Notes under the pieces: model-generated
Databases searched by the model: none
The model's input: the letters and a program-made list of their open reading frames with translations, nothing else
What the model was told of the DNA's origin: nothing
Program-made: the position numbers and the translations under genes
NCBI GenBank assembly: GCA_944367495.1
Contig: CALVWP010000005.1
Location: 1-48,687 of the forward strand
DNA length: 48,687 bases
Source of the DNA: an uncultured Bacilli bacterium
GTDB lineage: Bacteria > Bacillota_I > Bacilli_A > RF39 > UBA660
Direction: 5' to 3'
Shown here: positions 13,799-47,830 of the stretch, piece by piece
How positions within the stretch are numbered: the first letter of the stretch is position 1
How the letters are laid out: each line of letters opens with the position of its first letter

Positions 13799-15064
13799 CT
13801 AATTTATCACAAACGGATCTAAAGCTTCTCCACTTCCACTCAAGCTGATATCTGAACTTAGAGTAATGGCGGGAAGAACCGCAATAGCATTACGCGCGGT
13901 GTAGCTGTCCAAATAGCCGTAGGTGCGCACAACAAAGACGCTGAAAGAATCACTGGCATAAGGCGATATTGTCCAATAATCTGTTCCTTTAACTAGCCAA
14001 TTCGTTGTTTTACATGTATTATAGTTATCATTATTTAAACTTAAACTTCCACATTGATCTTTGTTTGTATTGGCTCTTAAATATTCACTGGCTGTAATGA
14101 GTCCTACACTGGCTGTCTGTGACTGTGTTCCATTTTCAGCTGCTATTTGATCGGCTAAATCGTTATTATCATAAGTTTCTCCACCTATACTCCATGTACT
14201 AGGTACTATCTTATCTTGATTTGTCGTTATACTCTCTAAATATTCGCCATTTAAATATGTCTTTAAATCAGCTGGTCTATCCCAACTGTTTGAACCCATT
14301 GATACACCAGTTGTATCAAATGTTCTTTTGGAAAGTAATTCATTTCTGACAATCTTTATTCTACCATCTGCTTCGACTGAAAGTATTCGCCATGTTTCAT
14401 TGTTAAAAGTGATATAGTTGTTAGGATTAGTTCCTTTATAAATAAATCTACCACTTTCATATTCATCTTGATATAATCCATCACCTTCAGTAACAGCTAA
14501 TGCTTTTAAATCATCTGAAGTAATTTCAGATGGTGTTGGTGGGATTACTGTACCATTACTTTGTCCATAATCTAATGTTACCGTAATTGTGGCAGTCGTA
14601 TTTTCTGGTTGACTGGTAATACTTGGGTTATAAGTTACTATTACCGTTAATATATCAGTCTCTGATGCTTTTAATTCATCTCCCTCTTCTATTCCACTTG
14701 TCTCAAACGTTATAGCTTCATTATTTGAATTATTTACTTTTATGCTATTTAAAACAGCATCTATATTTCCCTCATTAGCTACCGTTATATCATATTTCAT
14801 CGAATCTCCCGGTGATACTAAATTTGTTTTAAAAGTAGCTGTTGTATCTGTATAACTAGGTTCTATGGCATTACTTGCACTCCCACTTTGTACATTACTT
14901 TGTATATCAGTTATTCTAACTAAGAAATTACTTCTTATATTAGATGTACCGGTTATTTTTAACTGACTTTGAAATGCGGCATAACCTACTACCATTATCA
15001 ATAATATCGCACATAGTCCCATTATCATATAATTTCTCTGCGTCCTATTTAATCTTCTATTCAT
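13799..15064 (-). CDS. DGR target protein, remote copy: signal-anchored secreted/surface protein with a hypervariable C-terminal domain
   Basis: Paralog of 46509..47777. N-terminal anchor NYMIMGLCAILLIMVVGYAAF. The C-terminus contains VR1. Start taken at ATG 15064 after GGGAGTGA; the track start is a GTG inside the RBS. Confidence 0.85.
   Translation of the reverse strand: MNRRLNRTQRNYMIMGLCAILLIMVVGYAAFQSQLKITGTSNIRSNFLVRITDIQSNVQSGSASNAIEPSYTDTTATFKTNLVSPGDSMKYDITVANEGNIDAVLNSIKVNNSNNEAITFETSGIEEGDELKASETDILTVIVTYNPSITSQPENTTATITVTLDYGQSNGTVIPPTPSEITSDDLKALAVTEGDGLYQDEYESGRFIYKGTNPNNYITFNNETWRILSVEADGRIKIVRNELLSKRTFDTTGVSMGSNSWDRPADLKTYLNGEYLESITTNQDKIVPSTWSIGGETYDNNDLADQIAAENGTQSQTASVGLITASEYLRANTNKDQCGSLSLNNDNYNTCKTTNWLVKGTDYWTISPYASDSFSVFVVRTYGYLDSYTARNAIAVLPAITLSSDISLSGSGEALDPFVIN
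13857..13966 (-). repeat. DGR variable repeat VR1 (remote target), including IMH at its 3' (low-coordinate) end
   Basis: 110 bp, collinear with TR 46230..46339. In the variable part, 19 of 20 differences fall at TR adenines on the coding strand; one non-A change is at 13923. The IMH-type end GCGGTTCTTCCCGCCATTACTCTAAG is identical to VR2. Confidence 0.9.
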
Positions 15065-15144
15065 TACTTTCACTCCCTATTTTCTAGTATAAATACTCAT
15101 AGCTATTTTATACCAAATTGTTATAAATTCTATCTTATAGTTAA

Positions 15145-38944: not shown

Positions 38945-39454
38945 ATGAACCACAATTTTAAAAATGGTGAAGAACTATTTAAAGCCATACTTACTGACCC
39001 TCAAATTTTAGAAACACTACCAATTAATTATAAATATGATACAGATTTTTTAGAAACATTTTATATTATTTTAGAAGATCAAATTAAACCATATATCCCA
39101 AAAGAAATCTTTAGTATTTTAAAACATCATGATGTCATTTTTAAAAATAATCATCCGATAAAACTAAAATACAAACCCCAAGTTACTTTAAAAGATGAAG
39201 CAGAAATATTACACGATCTTTTAACTGATCCCAAAACAATCGAAACTATACCAACTAATGATAAATACAATAATGATTTTTTAGAAATGTTATATATTAT
39301 TTGGGAAGATGAAATTGAACCTTATATTCCCAAAGAAATGTTTGAAACGTTAAAAAATGAAGCTTTAATGCATGAATATCATCACAATCATCAATTAAAA
39401 CAAAAAATATGGGTCAAAGAAGAACATGCTAAAAAGTTAAAGGAGTTACCTTAA
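38945..39454 (+). CDS. Hypothetical protein built from two tandem ~85-aa repeats
   Basis: AILTDPQILETLPINYKYDTDFLETFYIILEDQIKPYIPKEIFSILK is repeated as DLLTDPKTIETIPTNDKYNNDFLEMLYIIWEDEIEPYIPKEMFETLK. Confidence 0.55.
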   Translation: MNHNFKNGEELFKAILTDPQILETLPINYKYDTDFLETFYIILEDQIKPYIPKEIFSILKHHDVIFKNNHPIKLKYKPQVTLKDEAEILHDLLTDPKTIETIPTNDKYNNDFLEMLYIIWEDEIEPYIPKEMFETLKNEALMHEYHHNHQLKQKIWVKEEHAKKLKELP

Positions 39455-40655: not shown

Positions 40656-41085
40656 TTAATTTTTCAGTAAATTATAACAATTTCCCCACTTTAAATGGCC
40701 TTTATAACTATTTATAATTTGTAAAGCTTTTCTTTCATCCACCTTACCCATTTTTATAACCCTCATTTTTCTTTTAAACCGCTTCTTTGTGTCTTTCCTA
40801 ACTTTCATAATAATTTTATTATTCCAAATATAAAACCTAAATCCTAAAAAACCTATACCCTCTTTACTGACATTAATAATTTTCGTTTTCTTATTTAATT
40901 TTAACTTATATTTACTAACCATTTCCTCTATTTTCTTTAAACAATACTTTAAATATTTCTTGTCAGAGGAAAGTAATAAACCGTCATCCATATACCTTAT
41001 GTAATATTTAATGTGTAATTTTTCTTTAATAAAATGATCCAATTCATTTAAATAAAATACCGCCATGATTTGACTAGTCATATTC
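40656..41085 (-). pseudogene. DGR reverse transcriptase, C-terminal fragment (split by RIT insertion)
   Basis: Begins ..IGN-MTSQIMAVFYLNELDH (RT motif 4, SQ). Contains RYMDDGLLL (YxDD catalytic motif) and a thumb-like C-terminus. The frame continues from 44539 once 41092..44542 is removed. Confidence 0.88.
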
Positions 41086-41115
41086 CCTATATTATGTAAA
41101 TCTTTACATAAAATT

Positions 41116-41193
41116 GGTTATAGCAACTAAAATATTATAGAAAGTAATATGTGAGAAAGCTTATATTTACAAGAATTTATTTTATTAATTTTT
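41116..41193. repeat. RIT terminal inverted repeat, left
   Basis: GGTTATAGCAACTAAAATATTATAGAAAGTAATATGTGAGAAAGCTTATATTTACAAGAATTTATTTTATTAATTTTT is the exact reverse complement of 44461..44538. Confidence 0.9.
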
Positions 41194-41251
41194 GCATAAT
41201 ATTATTGCATTTTTTTAATAATTTTGAAAATACTAGTTTTAGGTGAATTTT

Positions 41252-42475
41252 ATGGAACGATTAAATTTGAAAGATTTATTGAACCGAGCTGAAAAAATTT
41301 TAAGAGAAAAAAAATATAGTGAGAGTACAATTCAAGATTATAAGTATGTTTGGAAAAAATTTTATAATATATGTGAATTATGTAATATAAAATATTTCGA
41401 TTTAGAATTGGCAAAAAAATTTTTAAAAATATATTATAATATTGATTTAAAAAATGGAAAAGGAAGATTATATACAAGAAGAATGCGTAGTATATATGTA
41501 TTAGATTCTATTGATAGGAATAAACCAATAAAAAATTTTAGACCTAAAGTAGAAAAAAGGTTACCAGAAGAATTTAATGATATTTTTTATGAATATGATG
41601 AATATTTAAAATCTAATTATTCTTATAATACTATAATGGCAAGTGAGAAAGTATTAGTTGATTTTTTTAAATATTTAAAACAAAATAATATAAATTCAAT
41701 AGAAAATATAGCAATTCAAAATATATATAATTTTGTAAATTCTATTAATACTCAAAAATATTCCTTAAATACAATATATGAAATTAAATATAAATTAAAA
41801 AATTTTTTTAAATATTTATATAATAATCATAAATATAAATTTGATGGAACTGATATTTTTCCAAAAATTGCAAAATTTGAAAGAAGTAAATTGCCATCTT
41901 ATTATACAATAGATGAAATAAATCAAATTTTAAAACAAGTAGATAGAAATACAAAAAAAGGAAAACGAGATTTTGCAATTCTTTTATTAGCAATTGTATA
42001 TGGATTAAGAAACTCAGATATTGTACATTTAAAAAAAGAAAATATTTTATGGAATGAAAATAAAATTGAGTTAGTTCAATATAAAACTAAAAGATTATTA
42101 GAATTACCTTTAACTGAAAATGTGAAATATTCATTATTAGATTATTTAAAAAATGCAAGACCAAAAATTAACACACCATATATTTTTTTACCAACAAAAC
42201 CACCTTATACTTATACTGATATGAAAAATTATTCTTCATTATATAAATCAGCTGAACAATATATAAATAAAGCAGGTATAGATGTAAAGAATAGAAAAAG
42301 AGGATTACATTCATTAAGACATAGTCTTGCATCTAATATGTTAAAAAATAACATTGAAATATCAACAATTTCAGGAGTCTTAGGTCATAGTAACATCAAT
42401 GTTACAAATATATACTTAAACATAAGTGAAAATCAGTTGAGAAAACTTGCATTGGAGGTTCCAAAATATGAATAG
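41252..42475 (+). CDS. Tyrosine recombinase, RIT subunit A-like
   Basis: Catalytic residues: R (YGLRNSD), HSLRHS, GHSNINVTNIY. Start at ATG 41252 after AGGTGA. Confidence 0.85.
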   Translation: MERLNLKDLLNRAEKILREKKYSESTIQDYKYVWKKFYNICELCNIKYFDLELAKKFLKIYYNIDLKNGKGRLYTRRMRSIYVLDSIDRNKPIKNFRPKVEKRLPEEFNDIFYEYDEYLKSNYSYNTIMASEKVLVDFFKYLKQNNINSIENIAIQNIYNFVNSINTQKYSLNTIYEIKYKLKNFFKYLYNNHKYKFDGTDIFPKIAKFERSKLPSYYTIDEINQILKQVDRNTKKGKRDFAILLLAIVYGLRNSDIVHLKKENILWNENKIELVQYKTKRLLELPLTENVKYSLLDYLKNARPKINTPYIFLPTKPPYTYTDMKNYSSLYKSAEQYINKAGIDVKNRKRGLHSLRHSLASNMLKNNIEISTISGVLGHSNINVTNIYLNISENQLRKLALEVPKYE

Positions 42476-43430
42476 TAATAACTTTATAGGACCTTTTAAA
42501 AATGTTGCTCCATTATATATTGAATATAAAAAAAGTTTAGGATTTGAGGCTAAGTCAGAATATAATGAATTGAAAAAATTAGATAGATATTTTTATAATA
42601 AAGGAATTAATGAAGTAAAACTTACAAAAGATATGGCAGAAGAATACGGAATTTTAAGAGAAAATGAATCTCCTAAAACTCAAGCCAAGCGATTATCTAT
42701 ATTAAAACAATTTGCTGTATATTTGCAAAAAATAGGATATTCAGATGTATATGTACATCACATAAAGCCTAATAAAATTGATTCCAAATTTAAACCATAT
42801 ATCTATTCAGAAAAAGATTTAAATATGATATTTGAATATTTAGACAAGCACCAATATGATACTAATTCAATATTTAATCGCGTTTTACCAATATTAATTA
42901 GAATACTATATGGGACTGGGCTTAGAAAAGGTGAAGTTATTAATTTAAAAAATGAAGACGTAGATCTGAATAAAAACATTATAACTATTTATAATGGCAA
43001 AGAAAATGTTACAAGAATAGTTCCAATCTCAGAAAGTCTTTCAGAATCAATTAAAATATACAAATCGAAATTTTTATGTAATAATCAATATTTTTTATGT
43101 GATTCTAAAGGAAATAAAATCAATTATCATATTACAGAATATTTTCAAAAAATATTAAAAAAAATAAATATATTGCGACCAGATGGGACTCCTCCAAGAT
43201 TTCACGATTTTAGATTTACATTTGCAGTAAATGCATTAGAAAAAATGGATAATAGTGGACAAGACTTATATACAACATTGCCTATTTTAAGTAAATATTT
43301 GGGACATAAAAATATAGAAGCAACAGAATATTATTTATTGTTAGCTAAAGATTATTTCGTTAATATAACTGATAAAGAGGAAAAATATTATAATGATTTT
43401 AAATTTATTAAGGATGATGAAAATGAATAA
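42468..43430 (+). CDS. Tyrosine recombinase, RIT subunit B-like
   Basis: R (GTGLRKGE), HDFRFT, GHKNIEATEYY. Start at ATG 42468 after GGAGG, in an ATGAATAG overlap with the upstream stop. Confidence 0.85.
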   Translation: MNSNNFIGPFKNVAPLYIEYKKSLGFEAKSEYNELKKLDRYFYNKGINEVKLTKDMAEEYGILRENESPKTQAKRLSILKQFAVYLQKIGYSDVYVHHIKPNKIDSKFKPYIYSEKDLNMIFEYLDKHQYDTNSIFNRVLPILIRILYGTGLRKGEVINLKNEDVDLNKNIITIYNGKENVTRIVPISESLSESIKIYKSKFLCNNQYFLCDSKGNKINYHITEYFQKILKKINILRPDGTPPRFHDFRFTFAVNALEKMDNSGQDLYTTLPILSKYLGHKNIEATEYYLLLAKDYFVNITDKEEKYYNDFKFIKDDENE

Positions 43431-44439
43431 AAAGGAATTAGATTATTATTTACAAAGGTTTTTAGATATTGAATTAAAAAAAAGTATTAATGTTTCTGAA
43501 AATACTATTATTTCGTATAAATTTGCTTTCATATCGCTTTTAGAATTTATTATTAAAAATTATAATAAAAATATTAAAGATATAAAAATTGAAACAATAA
43601 ATAAAAAAGTTATTATAGAATATTTAAATTATTTAGAATTAGTAAAGAAAAATTCTATTTCAACTAGAAATCAAAGATTAGCGGCAATAAAATCTTTTTA
43701 TAATTATTTAGCACTTGAAGAAATTGAATATTTGCCACTATGCAATGATATTCTTTCAATAAAAACAAAAAAAAGCAATCACAAAACAGTAAAATATTTA
43801 TCAAAAGAAGGTGTAAAAGAAATATTATCTTTACCAAACACTTCGACTAAGCAAGGTATTAGAGATTTAGCTATATTAACTTTATTATATGATTCTGGAG
43901 CAAGAGTTCAAGAATTAATAACGTTAAACATATGTGATTTAAATTTAAAAAATAAAACATTAAATTTATATGGCAAAGGAAGAAAAAATCGTACAATACC
44001 TTTATTAAGACAAACAATAAAAATTTTAGAAAAATATATTAAAATCTATAAGATGAATTTTAATAGCCCTAGTTTGTTATTTTTTAATAGTAAAAAAGAA
44101 GCTCTATCAAGAATGGGTGTAACTTATATAATAAATAAATATGTAAAAATAGCTAAAAAAAAGAACCCAATAGAATTTCAAATAAAAGTAACACCACATA
44201 TTTTTAGACATTCTAAAGCAATGCATCTTTTAGAAAGTGGAGTGAACCTAATATATATTAGAGATTTTTTAGGTCACGAAAGTGTAACAACTACAGAAAT
44301 TTATGCTAAAGCAAATCCTGAGATAAAAAGAAAAGCAATAGAAACAAATTCAAAAGAACTTTCAAAAACGATTCAATTTTCAGATAAAGAAAAAAAAGAT
44401 TTATTATGGTGGCTTAAAAATTCTTTAAAAGAAAATTAA
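43423..44439 (+). CDS. Tyrosine recombinase, RIT subunit C-like
   Basis: R (SGARVQE), HIFRHS, GHESVTTTEIY. Start at ATG 43423, in an ATGAATAA overlap with the upstream stop. Confidence 0.85.
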   Translation: MNKKELDYYLQRFLDIELKKSINVSENTIISYKFAFISLLEFIIKNYNKNIKDIKIETINKKVIIEYLNYLELVKKNSISTRNQRLAAIKSFYNYLALEEIEYLPLCNDILSIKTKKSNHKTVKYLSKEGVKEILSLPNTSTKQGIRDLAILTLLYDSGARVQELITLNICDLNLKNKTLNLYGKGRKNRTIPLLRQTIKILEKYIKIYKMNFNSPSLLFFNSKKEALSRMGVTYIINKYVKIAKKKNPIEFQIKVTPHIFRHSKAMHLLESGVNLIYIRDFLGHESVTTTEIYAKANPEIKRKAIETNSKELSKTIQFSDKEKKDLLWWLKNSLKEN

Positions 44440-44460
44440 TATTTTTAATAAATATTATGT

Positions 44461-44538
44461 AAAAATTAATAAAATAAATTCTTGTAAATATAAGCTTTCT
44501 CACATATTACTTTCTATAATATTTTAGTTGCTATAACC
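44461..44538. repeat. RIT terminal inverted repeat, right
   Basis: Exact reverse complement of 41116..41193. About 10 further bp inward match with one mismatch. Confidence 0.9.
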
Positions 44539-45231
44539 TATAGGAAGTCCCTTACCTTTTTCGTATAATGGAATATTTTCTATCTCTTTAATCACTTTCT
44601 TATAATGATTATTTAAAATATTCATATTTTGCACTTTATTTAACTCTTTATCTTTTAAAAACTGTATTTCCCCATTAACATAATCCATATCAGTCGATTT
44701 TATTATTTTCCAAATAATATTTAAACTATCTTTATCTTTTATCTTTGTTTTTAATAAATCAAATAAAATTTCATGATCAATACTATAAAAATATTTACTT
44801 ATATCAAATTTCAAAGCATAAATAGTATTCCCCTTTAATTCATTTAAATATTTCTTTAAATATCTAATTCCATAGTGCGTTCCCTTATTTTTTCTAGTAG
44901 CTACATTCGTATCAATCAAACATTTATCTAAAACCGGTAATAAAATCTTATCAGCTACCACATGATTAATTAACTTATCACTAATATTTTGACTCATTAT
45001 AATTCTATATTTTGGCTCTTTAATTAAAAATATATTATACTTACTAGGCATATAATTTTTATCATTAATTATTTTTTTAACTCTAGCTAAATTAACCGAA
45101 TAAAAATCTTCAAACTTTCTTATTTTAACTTTATTCTTAGTATTAACTCTTATTTGCCTTAAATAAACTCTCTTAATATCTTCAAAAGTAATACTATCAT
45201 ATAACTTTCTTTTCATATTTAATCCATCCAT
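44524..45231 (-). pseudogene. DGR reverse transcriptase, N-terminal fragment (frame runs into the RIT repeat and stops)
   Basis: RT motifs 1-3 (EPKYRIIMSQNISDKLINHVV, ATRKNKGTHYG, ALKFDISKYFYSIDH). Native sequence ends ...KGLPIG at 44539. The last residues YSN and the stop are encoded by the RIT inverted repeat. Confidence 0.88.
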
Positions 45232-45541
45232 AAAGTAATCTTAAAATATCAAGTAAATGCAGACTAACCTTTTGATATTTTTTATATGAAATATATTTCT
45301 TATCACAAGATACTTTCAAATAAAAATCAAGCATCTTAATTTTTACAATAGCCTTAAATTGATATTTTTTTCTTTTATCTCTAAACTCGTTAGCCATATA
45401 TAAAATTTCTAATAAATCATAAAGCTCTTCTCTAATCTTATCTTTTAATACCCTCTCATTACTCGGAAAATTAACAACAATCTTATCTAAATATAAAATA
45501 GTTTTCTTTAACTCGGTTATAATATTTAAACTATCTTTCAT
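45197..45541 (-). CDS. avd: DGR accessory variability determinant (Avd-like four-helix-bundle protein)
   Basis: 114 aa, basic and all-helical. FPSNERVLKDKIREELYDLLEILYMANE pattern. Sits directly upstream of the RT and overlaps it, as Avd genes typically do. Confidence 0.75.
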   Translation of the reverse strand: MKDSLNIITELKKTILYLDKIVVNFPSNERVLKDKIREELYDLLEILYMANEFRDKRKKYQFKAIVKIKMLDFYLKVSCDKKYISYKKYQKVSLHLLDILRLLYGWIKYEKKVI

Positions 45542-45942
45542 ATGATCTCTTCAATAGCCTCCAAAATAATACTTATCTTAGAAGTATCTTTCAAAACCAT
45601 AAGTTTTTCACATATCCTATCAATCCTAACACTAATACTATCATCACATCTAACATATTTATCATAATTATTGTTATTAAATTTCTTTTTAGTAATATTT
45701 ACACCCTCAACAATCAAATAATTAATCTTAAAACATTTAAGTTTATCAGTAACTTTGTTATAAGCAATCAAAGGAAAACCAACTCTTCTAACACCACCAA
45801 CCTCTTTAATCTTATAATCAAATAAATTATTCATTAAATAAGTATCTTCACCATAAGTTTCATAAAAATTCCCAACTTTAATTAAAATAACATACTTGTC
45901 GTATTTTTTCTTCTTTTCACTGTAAATATCATAAATTTTCAT
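45538..45942 (-). CDS. MutS domain I-like (mismatch-binding-domain-only) DGR accessory protein
   Basis: YVILIKVGNFYETYGEDTYLMNNLFDYKIKEVGG..VRRVGFPLIAYNKVTDKL aligns by eye with E. coli MutS [51 protein letters not shown]. The Phe-x-Glu motif (FYE) is retained. ATGA overlap with avd. Confidence 0.65.
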   Translation of the reverse strand: MKIYDIYSEKKKKYDKYVILIKVGNFYETYGEDTYLMNNLFDYKIKEVGGVRRVGFPLIAYNKVTDKLKCFKINYLIVEGVNITKKKFNNNNYDKYVRCDDSISVRIDRICEKLMVLKDTSKISIILEAIEEII

Positions 45943-46229: not shown

Positions 46230-46339
46230 TTTAGAGAGTTGGCGGGAAGAACCGCATTAGTATTATTCGCGTTGTTGTTGTTCAAATTGCCGTTGCTGTT
46301 CACATTAAAGACGTTGTTAGAATTACTGGCATTAGGCGA
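46230..46339 (-). repeat. DGR template repeat (TR)
   Basis: 110 bp. The coding-strand reading encodes SPNASNSNNVFNVNSNGNLNNNNANNTNAVLPANSL (15 AAY codons, 33 adenines in the variable part). Collinear with VR2 and VR1. The 3' end (IMH*) GCGGTTCTTCCCGCCAACTCTCTAAA differs from the VR IMH at 4 positions. Confidence 0.92.
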
Positions 46340-46508: not shown

Positions 46509-47777
46509 CTAATTTATCACAAACGGATCTTCAACTTCTCCACTTCCACTCAAGCTGATATCAGAGCTTAGAGTAATGGCGGGAAGAACCGCACCAGTAC
46601 TAAACGCGCCGTCGCTGGACAAAGTGCCGTCGCTGCTCACACGAAAGACGCTGGAAGAACTACCGGCATAAGGCGATATTATCCAATAAAAACTGCCTTT
46701 AAATAGCCAATTCGTCGTTTTACATATATCTTTGTTATCATTATTTAAACTAAAACTTCCACATTGTTCTTTATTTGTATTGGCTCTTAAATATTCACTG
46801 ACTGTAATTAAACCTACACTGGATGTCTGTGACTGAGTTCCATTTTCTTTTGTTATTTGTCCAGCTAAATCATTATTATCATATGTTACTTCTCCTATAC
46901 TCCATGTACTAGGTACTATTTTATCTTGGTTTGTTGTTATACTCTCTAAATATTCGCCATTTAAATATGTCTTTATATCTGCTGGTCTATCCCATTCATT
47001 TGAGCCATATGTTCCACCAGTTGTATCCCATGCTCTAGCCGAAAGTAATTCATTTCTAACAATCTTTATTCTGCCATCAGCTTCTACTGATAATATTCGC
47101 CATGTTTCATTGTTAAAGGTGATATAGTTGTTAGGATTAGCTCCTTTATAAAAGTATCTTCCACTTTCATATTCATCTTGATATAATCCATCAGCTCCAT
47201 CTGAAGCAAGTGGTAGAGTTATTCCTCCTACTGTTGGTCCTTCTGGCGTTGGTGGAGTTACTGTACCATTACTTTGTCCATAATCTAAAGTTACGGTAAT
47301 TGTTGCTGTCGTATTTTCTGGTTGACTGGTAATACTTGGGTTATAAGTTACTATTACCGTTAATATATCACTCTCTGATGCTTTTAATTCATCTCCCTCT
47401 TCTATTCCACTTGTCTCAAACGTTATAGCTTCATTATTAGAATTACTTACTTTTATACTATTTAAAACGGCATCAATATTTCCCTCATTAGCTACCGTTA
47501 TATCATATTTCATCGAATCTCCTGGTGATACTAAATTTGTTTTAAAAGTAGCTGTTGTATCGGTATAACTAGGCTCTATGGCATTACTCGCACTCCCACT
47601 TTGTACATTACTTTCTATACCAGTTATTTTAACTAAGAAGTTACTTGCTATATTAGATGTACCGGTTATTTTAAGCTGGCTTTGAAAAGCCGCATAACCT
47701 ACTGCCATTATTAAAAGTACTGCACACAGTCCCATGATCATATAATTTCGCTGCGTCCTATTTAATCTTTTATTCAT
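46509..47777 (-). CDS. DGR target protein, element-adjacent copy: signal-anchored secreted/surface protein with a hypervariable C-terminal domain
   Basis: Paralog of 13799..15064. Anchor NYMIMGLCAVLLIMAVGYAAF. VR2 encodes SPYAGSSSSVFRVSSDGTLSSDGAFSTGAVLPAITLS. Start at ATG 47777 after AAAGGAG. Confidence 0.88.
   Translation of the reverse strand: MNKRLNRTQRNYMIMGLCAVLLIMAVGYAAFQSQLKITGTSNIASNFLVKITGIESNVQSGSASNAIEPSYTDTTATFKTNLVSPGDSMKYDITVANEGNIDAVLNSIKVSNSNNEAITFETSGIEEGDELKASESDILTVIVTYNPSITSQPENTTATITVTLDYGQSNGTVTPPTPEGPTVGGITLPLASDGADGLYQDEYESGRYFYKGANPNNYITFNNETWRILSVEADGRIKIVRNELLSARAWDTTGGTYGSNEWDRPADIKTYLNGEYLESITTNQDKIVPSTWSIGEVTYDNNDLAGQITKENGTQSQTSSVGLITVSEYLRANTNKEQCGSFSLNNDNKDICKTTNWLFKGSFYWIISPYAGSSSSVFRVSSDGTLSSDGAFSTGAVLPAITLSSDISLSGSGEVEDPFVIN
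46567..46676 (-). repeat. DGR variable repeat VR2 with IMH
   Basis: All 22 differences from the TR in the variable part fall at TR adenines on the coding strand. The GC-rich GGTTCTTCCCGCC element is followed by the IMH. Confidence 0.92.
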
Positions 47778-47830
47778 TGCTCTCACTCCTTTATTATGAA
47801 TATTTAGTCGCTTATTTATGCTACAATTTT

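Follow-up and report, generated by a model that had tools for sequence, protein, structure and literature searches.

A lineage of recombinase-in-trio elements inserts at the signature motif of diversity-generating retroelement reverse transcriptases

Recombinase-in-trio (RIT) elements have been known since 2009. The described members, from Cupriavidus metallidurans CH34 and from C. necator pHG1, a plasmid cited in the literature as rich in RITs, are ~3.4-3.5 kb long, carry the genes ritA, ritB and ritC in that order with short overlaps between the open reading frames (ORFs), lack cargo and are bounded by terminal inverted repeats (IRs) with a palindrome at one end (Van Houdt 2009/2012, Ricker 2013). 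Among their products, RitA has two CB domains and RitC an extra C-terminal helix (PMC8138268). On occasion, RITs have already been seen inserted in genes of other mobile elements, namely the transposase of Tn6049 and radC of Tn6054. Transposition of known RITs was not reproduced, and their target specificity is listed as not tested (PMC10214605). Here we describe a RIT element in a 48,687-nucleotide stretch of DNA from an uncultured Bacilli bacterium (contig CALVWP010000005.1; the whole stretch is called the window below), where it splits the reverse transcriptase (RT) gene of a diversity-generating retroelement (DGR). The lineage to which this element belongs is site-specific for DGR RT genes, with the signature motif (I/L)GxxxSQ as its dedicated attachment site.

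The RT gene lies on the minus strand. An earlier reading of the window by a model, made from the sequence alone (hereafter the original prediction), had claimed that this gene is split inside the (I/L)GxxxSQ motif by a mobile element with a trio of recombinases, and the sequence bears this out. The ORF of the N-terminal fragment, 44524..45231(-), ends ...EKGKGLPIG-YSN*, the codons for YSN and the stop being supplied by the IR of the element, while the ORF of the C-terminal fragment, 40656..41081(-), begins MTSQIMAVFYLNELDH. In-silico removal of 3451 bp (41092..44542) yields a single 374-aa ORF (...GLPIGNMTSQ...YMDDG) that matches Pfam RVT_1 (2e-21) and carries IGNMTSQ and YMDD. Because the hexamer CCTATA is present at both junctions (Table 1), seven equivalent deletion registers, from 41086-44536 to 41092-44542, restore the same ORF. 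The original prediction was therefore right about the restored frame, the junction hexamers and the truncation of the RT at ...PIGYSN*. The 8-bp palindrome CCTATAGG that it put forward as a feature of the target is not general, since other hit sites read CCAATAGG, CCTATTGG, GGAATTGG and similar. With its RT interrupted and truncated in this way the DGR lacks a functional RT; it is currently OFF, inactivated by the insertion.

The insert is a true RIT element, because its three co-oriented, overlapping recombinase genes match ritA, ritB and ritC of pHG1, it has 118-nt terminal IRs and its 3.4 kb include no cargo genes. In blastp comparisons with the pHG1 trio H16_RS31805/10/15, each protein aligned over its full length and had its positional counterpart as its best match (RitA 29%, 2e-53; RitB 29%, 8e-52; RitC 38%, 2e-77), cross-matches being far weaker. 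All three genes had been predicted to be intact, and indeed the catalytic residues R...HxxR...Y are found in each, in the motifs GLR/GAR, HxxR(H/F) and LGHx(8)Y. Ahead of its SAM-like domain RitA carries ~110 additional N-terminal residues, and RitC runs ~45 residues beyond the catalytic Tyr; the longest ORF of ritC starts at 43393, and its start was called at 43423. A repeat search showed the IRs to be 87% complementary and identical over their outer ~78 nt, and both IR ends are unique within the window. The IR tip of this lineage reads TTATAGCAAY..., and the element moves as a whole, as a 3419-nt unit with the gene trio, subfamily order, catalytic residues and IRs of a RIT.

The insertion described in the original prediction is not an isolated one: the same lineage splits at least 10 distinct DGR RT genes (32-99% identical) at identical Ile-Gly codons, and every locus recovered reads ...G(L/I/M)xI before the break and GNxx(S/A)Q after it. 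In the genome-contig collection, all 5 loci with a relative of RitC have an RT split at the position of window-RT residue 231/232, and RitC relatives at 85% identity, found in three Clostridia metagenome-assembled genomes (MAGs), split RTs whose identity to that of the window is only 32-39%. An identical RitC occurs on 13 metagenome contigs, each with RT fragments at its ends. In the contig index, 59 blocks list an identical RitA, and the 21 contigs that were read all end in RT fragments. The IR tip is present in two species-representative genomes, one of them the circular long-read chromosome OZ007038.1, and each of the two has a diverged DGR RT that the RIT interrupts at the position seen in the window; a scan of JGI metagenomes for the IR tip added two loci only, both with an RT split at the same site. 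RITs with 65% and 46% identical RitA likewise split RTs there, whereas a trio from Alkalihalobacillus (RitA 38% identity) does not lie in an RT, which indicates that RT specificity is limited to a clade.

Comparison of occupied loci gave 99.7-99.8% identity for the 3419-nt RIT and 69-85% for the RT genes that hold it. So close a match between elements in diverged genes indicates recent, independent insertions, and hence recent horizontal spread, rather than shared ancestry. The element is inserted in both orientations among these loci. Two long-read assemblies, OZ007038.1 (metaFlye, circular) and tig00017183, have the order RT-C / RIT / RT-N, and our counts of distinct insertions rest on such assemblies and on junction sequences, not on left-right pairings of flanks. 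At every locus with both flanks, deletion of the element gives a full-length RT ORF; no decayed occupied RT was seen. The IR tip reads TTATAGCAAC/T-TAA in frame, so that every occupied N-terminal fragment ends ...IG-YSN*. Most of the closest species-level RT loci (74/80) are uninterrupted. All occupied sites have the core WATWGG, but so do 61 of these 74 unoccupied sites, and a core preference is not significant.

The original prediction had proposed a search for an uninterrupted RT in related genomes, and this gave a positive result. Intact 369-374-aa proteins at 98-99% identity were returned by a search with the restored RT, and four metagenome contigs of the same species (L015, L016, L017 and L018), 99% identical to and syntenic with the window, have an uninterrupted RT gene. 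Their alignments to the window stop exactly at 41091/44537, and the empty site reads GGACTTCCTATAGGGAATATG. In L015, which is 99.1% identical to the window over 8.3 kb, the template repeat (TR) differs by one base and the differences in variable repeat 1 (VR1) are almost all at TR adenines; this combination of a conserved TR and a diverged VR1 indicates that the DGR was recently active in the window's species. The occupied haplotype was assembled in several samples, and in an independent assembly its VR1 and 2.2 kb of flank are 100% identical to those of the window.

We also looked up nine restored RT variants by exact match, and only that of the L019 type occurs as an intact gene, encoding a protein identical to the occupied RT. 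Empty sites of this type read CCTATTGG in three contigs and CCTATAGG in one, and these two cores are the ones found at the two junctions of the occupied L019 copy. Over its 1158 nt the gene varies at only six positions, and the core site is among them. The distribution of these core variants is suggestive, but not proof, of core exchange.

All junctions are built alike. Followed in the coding direction of the RT, each occupied site consists of RT-N, core (WATWGG), IR, ritABC in either orientation, IR, inverted core (CCWATW), a palindrome P (TTATGYAAA NN TTTRCATAA), core (WATWGG) and RT-C, with P always on the C-terminal side of the RT. The core equivalent to X3 of the window is CCWATW at all loci. 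X1 and X3 are identical in 6 of 10 loci, and at the others only the two W bases, both in wobble positions of codons, distinguish them. In many cases the unused inner core has the sequence of the core in some other RT type; in the window, X2 is CCAATT in reverse complement, and CCAATT is the core in another of the RT types that the element has entered. When read outward, the centre of P is GA wherever P adjoins the ritA end (at least 11 loci) and TC wherever it adjoins the ritC end (three independent loci: L019/L030, L027 and L028). The arms of P resemble the IR tips and are putative recombinase-binding 9-mers, and the RIT with 46% identical RitA has one and the same 9-mer as its IR tip and in its P arms.

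Other accounts of this architecture were considered and rejected. In-situ inversion between the 118-nt IRs might have produced the loci whose interior is inverted (L002/L019 and L023), but the centre of P, which lies outside the IRs, flips with the interior. As this flip is seen in every case, mis-orientation of the element interior by the assembler is ruled out as well. Nor is the 24-bp segment that separates the RT from the left IR of host origin, as it is absent from empty sites and travels with the element.

Table 1. Coordinates in the window of the split RT, the RIT element with its junctions, and the surrounding DGR.
Feature	Position	Strand	Remarks
RT C-terminal part	40656..41085	(-)	G-NMTSQ...YMDDG...thumb; carries G310
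Core X1 (CCTATA)	41086..41091		RT-C junction
Palindrome P, 20 bp	41092..41111		TTATGTAAA-TC-TTTACATAA; part of element
Core X2 (AATTGG)	41112..41117		Inverted core beside left IR; putative second, unused crossover site
Left terminal IR (ritA-proximal)	41118..41230		Outer end TTATAGCAAC...
ritA	41252..42475	(+)	407-aa tyrosine recombinase with extra N-terminal region; Pfam Phage_integrase and SAM-like domain
ritB	42468..43430	(+)	320-aa tyrosine recombinase; Pfam 2e-22; 8-bp overlap with ritA and with ritC
ritC	43423..44439	(+)	338-aa tyrosine recombinase; Pfam Phage_integrase 8e-35
Right terminal IR (ritC-proximal)	44424..44536		Outer end ...GTTGCTATAA
Core X3 (CCTATA)	44537..44542		RT-N junction; putative 6-bp crossover/overlap; direct repeat of X1
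RT N-terminal part	44543..45231	(-)	Residues 1-~230, ends ...GLPI-G; 99% identical to intact RTs P0001-P0003
bAvd accessory gene	45197..45541	(-)	Pfam bAvd 2e-12; NCBIfam DivGenRetAVD 8.5e-16, under that model's cut-off
MutS-like (MSL) accessory gene	45538..45942	(-)	Pfam MutS_I 1.4e-7
TR core, 101 nt	46239..46339	(-)	Repeat comparison
VR1	46576..46676	(-)	3' end of target gene 46509..47786(-) (DUF6273)
VR2	13866..13966	(-)	In paralogous target gene 13799..15073(-)

We consider it highly probable that these observations reflect a RIT lineage whose attachment site, with the consensus ..CC-WATWGG-NAAT.., encodes the Ile-Gly-Asn of the DGR RT motif, and that this lineage is a selfish specialist. 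In the mechanism that we propose, the element would become transiently circular, and its joined ends would form one long palindrome (IR - CCWATW - P - WATWGG - IR) holding two inverted core-type sites, each made up of a 9-bp arm, a 6-bp overlap and a 9-bp arm. A conservative tyrosine-recombinase crossover between either of these cores and the matching 6 bp of the RT gene would then insert the element in one or the other orientation, in both cases leaving P on the RT-C side and a 6-bp core at each junction. The RT would thereby be truncated past the Gly of motif 4 (...PIG-YSN*), turning the DGR off, and later recombination between the flanking cores could excise the element and rebuild the RT exactly, with at most two wobble bases altered. 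A two-core circle would explain both the position of P on the RT-C side and the flip of its centre with orientation, the latter being a prediction of the model that agrees with all loci. The element would thus use a conserved, non-essential and horizontally mobile gene as a safe harbour, and the reversible silencing of the DGR would be a by-product.

A number of observations weigh against this interpretation. The target arms have weak similarity to the 9-mers of the element. The fetched loci, genome contigs and viral contigs, all of them assembled sequence, yielded neither a joined-end (circle) junction, which the original prediction had suggested looking for, nor an excision product; the IR itself had no match in the viral contigs. 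Published mobilome work likewise reported exonuclease-protected RIT DNA without a circle junction, as well as palindromic ends, and suggested hairpin-ended intermediates (PMC5737581). The exact restored RT protein of the window was not found in a collection of 15 billion proteins although the occupied haplotype recurs, which indicates that excision is not frequent in the window lineage. Many short-read contigs (e.g. L004-L009) pair left and right flanks from different RT genes, and in one contig (L034, from BRZ_SB) the RIT is flanked by two RT N-fragments, inverted; such contigs are either chimeric assemblies through the 3.4-kb repeat or the result of real recombination between RIT copies, and chimeric assembly accounts for part of the metagenome evidence.

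The RT halves of the window add to these points. The original prediction had noticed no other lesions in the DGR, which holds for the rest of the DGR, but the RT has a suspicious G at residue 310, which is D or E in 108 of 110 homologues, and this G and three other substitutions add up to four derived amino-acid changes. These changes hint at drift after inactivation. Compared with four intact alleles, the occupied haplotype has clustered, mostly A-to-G changes at RT codons 133-135, 187-188 and 310 (AAA GGT GAT to AAG GGG AAT, AGA AAA to GGG GAA and, for G310, GAT to GGT), which could be the result of drift after inactivation or of a short conversion tract. The ratio of nonsynonymous to synonymous changes is 4:2 in the RT and 22:18 in ten neighbouring genes, numbers that are too small for a conclusion on relaxed selection.

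The original prediction offered two readings of the split RT, a recently killed DGR with frozen VRs and a reversible arrangement. The former fits the window, since VR1 is identical in the two occupied assemblies and no intact version is on record; the identity of VR1 and its flank, the absence of the restored protein and the four derived changes together favour a DGR that is off for good at this locus. Reversibility is favoured, for its part, by recombination at a direct 6-bp repeat, protein-identical occupied and empty alleles of the L019 RT type, intact ORFs after in-silico excision and evident frequent mobility. The support for the reversible reading is indirect, and precise excision restoring the window RT is mechanistically plausible but was not observed. 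Going further, the RIT clade might act as a heritable, reversible hypermutation switch that enters and leaves precisely with silent wobble footprints, so that lineages would alternate between receptor repertoires that diversify and ones that are frozen, in an association old enough for co-evolution with DGRs; we regard this as unlikely. We hold it to be slightly less likely again that the switch is a domesticated one, in which a RIT kept by the host or co-evolved with the DGR would give heritable, reversible ON/OFF control through regulated excision and reintegration. Conservative recombination at a 6-bp core would make exact restoration possible, occupied RTs never decayed, core swaps would be silent because the variable core positions are wobble bases, and the association with RTs extends to RITs with 46% identical RitA and is hence old, all of which, together with the protein-identical alleles, speaks for such a switch. 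However, the RIT contains no regulator, excisionase or signal-responsive element, the great majority of the closest species-level RT loci are simply uninterrupted, a self-identity of 99.8% across diverged RT genes is selfish behaviour, the search for an intact copy of the window's occupied haplotype found none, and G310 stands at a conserved acidic position. The analogy that had been drawn with developmental excision in spore-formers finds no support: the hosts are ~1.5-Mb uncultured Bacilli/'Tenericutes'-like MAGs, nothing links the element to differentiation, and a host-regulated, sporulation-like switch is not supported.

A single ancient insertion, inherited vertically together with a dead DGR whose VRs are permanently frozen, the element and RT halves being relics, would account for the identical VR1 of the two occupied assemblies and for the derived changes in the RT. 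It is very improbable in light of the near-identity of RITs in diverged RT genes, the two orientations with the predicted P flip, the empty sites in 99%-identical genomes, the intact state of all RT halves and all three recombinases, and an RT substitution ratio not above that of the neighbouring genes. We give just as little credence to the idea that the split RT still works, its fragments being expressed separately and reassembling so that the DGR is active with the element in place. The C-terminal fragment of the window does start at the native Met of GNMTSQ, with AGGG ahead of it, but in most of the other targeted RTs this position is V, Y, L or E and the junction offers no start codon, the break falls inside the conserved signature motif, and the identity of VR1 between the two occupied assemblies also speaks against continued activity. 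Least probable of all is an assembly artefact in which a repeated RIT was threaded into an RT that is intact in the genome. Short-read contigs do show all pairings of flanks (A+a, A+b, A+c, B+a, B+b and B+c), besides the one structure with two N-fragments, so chimeric joins through the repeat do occur; however, junctions from RT flank to IR occur in dozens of independent contigs, the two long-read assemblies contain the complete RT-C / RIT / RT-N arrangement, and the two flanks of the window are syntenic neighbours in the empty-site contig L015. The selfish specialist with a dedicated site in the RT motif therefore remains our preferred explanation.

Several better-known elements share parts of this behaviour. 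Tn554 and the SE/GInt elements likewise insert site-specifically without a true target duplication, and a 6-bp core, described as a 6-bp footprint, can be carried by Tn554/SE elements from the previous to the next site. A similar carry-over would explain why X1 can differ from X3 and why X2 keeps a "memory" of other RT cores. The likeness to the Tn554 type is limited to the behaviour of this core: Tn554 has two recombinases and a non-recombinase TnpC and enters att554 in one orientation, whereas the third gene of the window RIT is also a tyrosine recombinase and both orientations occur. SE/GInt elements have four genes plus cargo, in contrast to three recombinases and a palindromic two-core junction here.

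The skin element in sigK of B. subtilis, the nifD element with XisA in Anabaena, the comK prophage of Listeria and SpyCIM1 in mutL are all recombinase elements that interrupt an ORF at a short core repeat. Their precise excision rebuilds the gene, as it would for the window RIT, and in SpyCIM1 the interrupted function also controls mutation rate. These are single-locus, host-integrated elements with demonstrated regulated excision, while the window RIT is promiscuous and spreads among RT alleles. Inteins, and group I/II introns that carry homing endonucleases, resemble it in aiming at the most strongly conserved coding part of a widespread gene family, which ensures that a target is available after horizontal transfer. 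Those elements are removed at the RNA or protein level and the gene works; the RIT acts at the level of DNA only and inactivates the gene while present. Compared with known RITs, the lineage described here stands out by a single defined target, a defined 6-bp core, an attachment site that can be deduced and insertion in both orientations, and in contrast to their Proteobacteria hosts it resides in AT-rich, small-genome Bacilli and Clostridia from gut metagenomes.

The interrupted DGR belongs with those of avd plus MSL architecture (Wu et al. 2018, architecture D); the MSL class of DGR accessory genes has been described (PMC5758913). It has in common with them the MSL and avd genes, an RT with IGxxxSQ, a TR, A-specific VR differences and a DUF6273/lectin-type target, and differs in its interrupted RT and in having two paralogous targets 32 kb apart on one TR. 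Once the RT is restored, the locus has an RT with (I/L)GxxxSQ and YxDD, an adenine-specific TR/VR pair and an adjacent avd. Over 101 nt, VR1 differs from the TR at 23 positions, each a TR adenine (23/23), and the mismatches of VR2 fall at adenines except at one position, which agrees with the earlier inference that both VRs had undergone A-specific divergence before the insertion. The two DUF6273 target genes (13799-15073 and 46509-47786) share 88-95% identity outside the VR, and the single TR serves both.

Some further features of these loci are of note. Two poly-C tracts, C19 (47979-47997) and C16 (48086-48101), lie 200-300 bp upstream of the target gene 46509..47786 and read as poly-G on the strand of that gene, and the target genes of L127 and L028 have G12-13 tracts upstream, at the matching relative position. 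These tracts may mediate phase variation of the diversified protein by strand slippage. A gene for a 169-aa ORF at 38945-39454, with an internal tandem duplication (38956-39153 / 39187-39384, 71% identical), adjoins the DGR in all syntenic contigs. The chromosome OZ007038.1 contains, apart from its split DGR, a second and intact DGR (L045, 841523-852614) with target, VR/TR, MSL, avd and RT, the latter 92% identical to the RT that is split by the RIT in L027/L028; genomes of this group thus carry several DGRs, each of them independently occupied or empty. In L027, whose DGR RT is split by the main RIT, a second and different recombinase trio (405/312/319 aa; RitC 41% identical) occupies positions 1-2788, directly upstream of the TR, and a second RIT family may therefore be associated with DGR loci.

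Our literature search found no paper that combines diversity-generating retroelements with recombinase in trio or reports RIT targeting of DGRs, and the DGR surveys that were checked make no mention of such RT interruptions. With this lineage, specific homing of a mobile element into the signature motif of DGR RTs is seen for the first time. For the RIT family, it supplies a natural target of ~30 bp, a 6-bp crossover core and a predicted palindromic two-core donor site, which would also account for the difficulty of finding circle junctions; with this target and a predicted donor site, RIT transposition becomes directly testable. For DGR surveys, it implies that some DGRs may be scored as RT-less or degenerate where the RT is merely occupied, and the tag ...IG-YSN* provides a simple signature with which occupied DGRs can be recognized in protein databases. 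For the gut Bacilli and Clostridia that carry these elements, the RIT amounts to a natural OFF state of hypermutation and may also act as an OFF/ON toggle.

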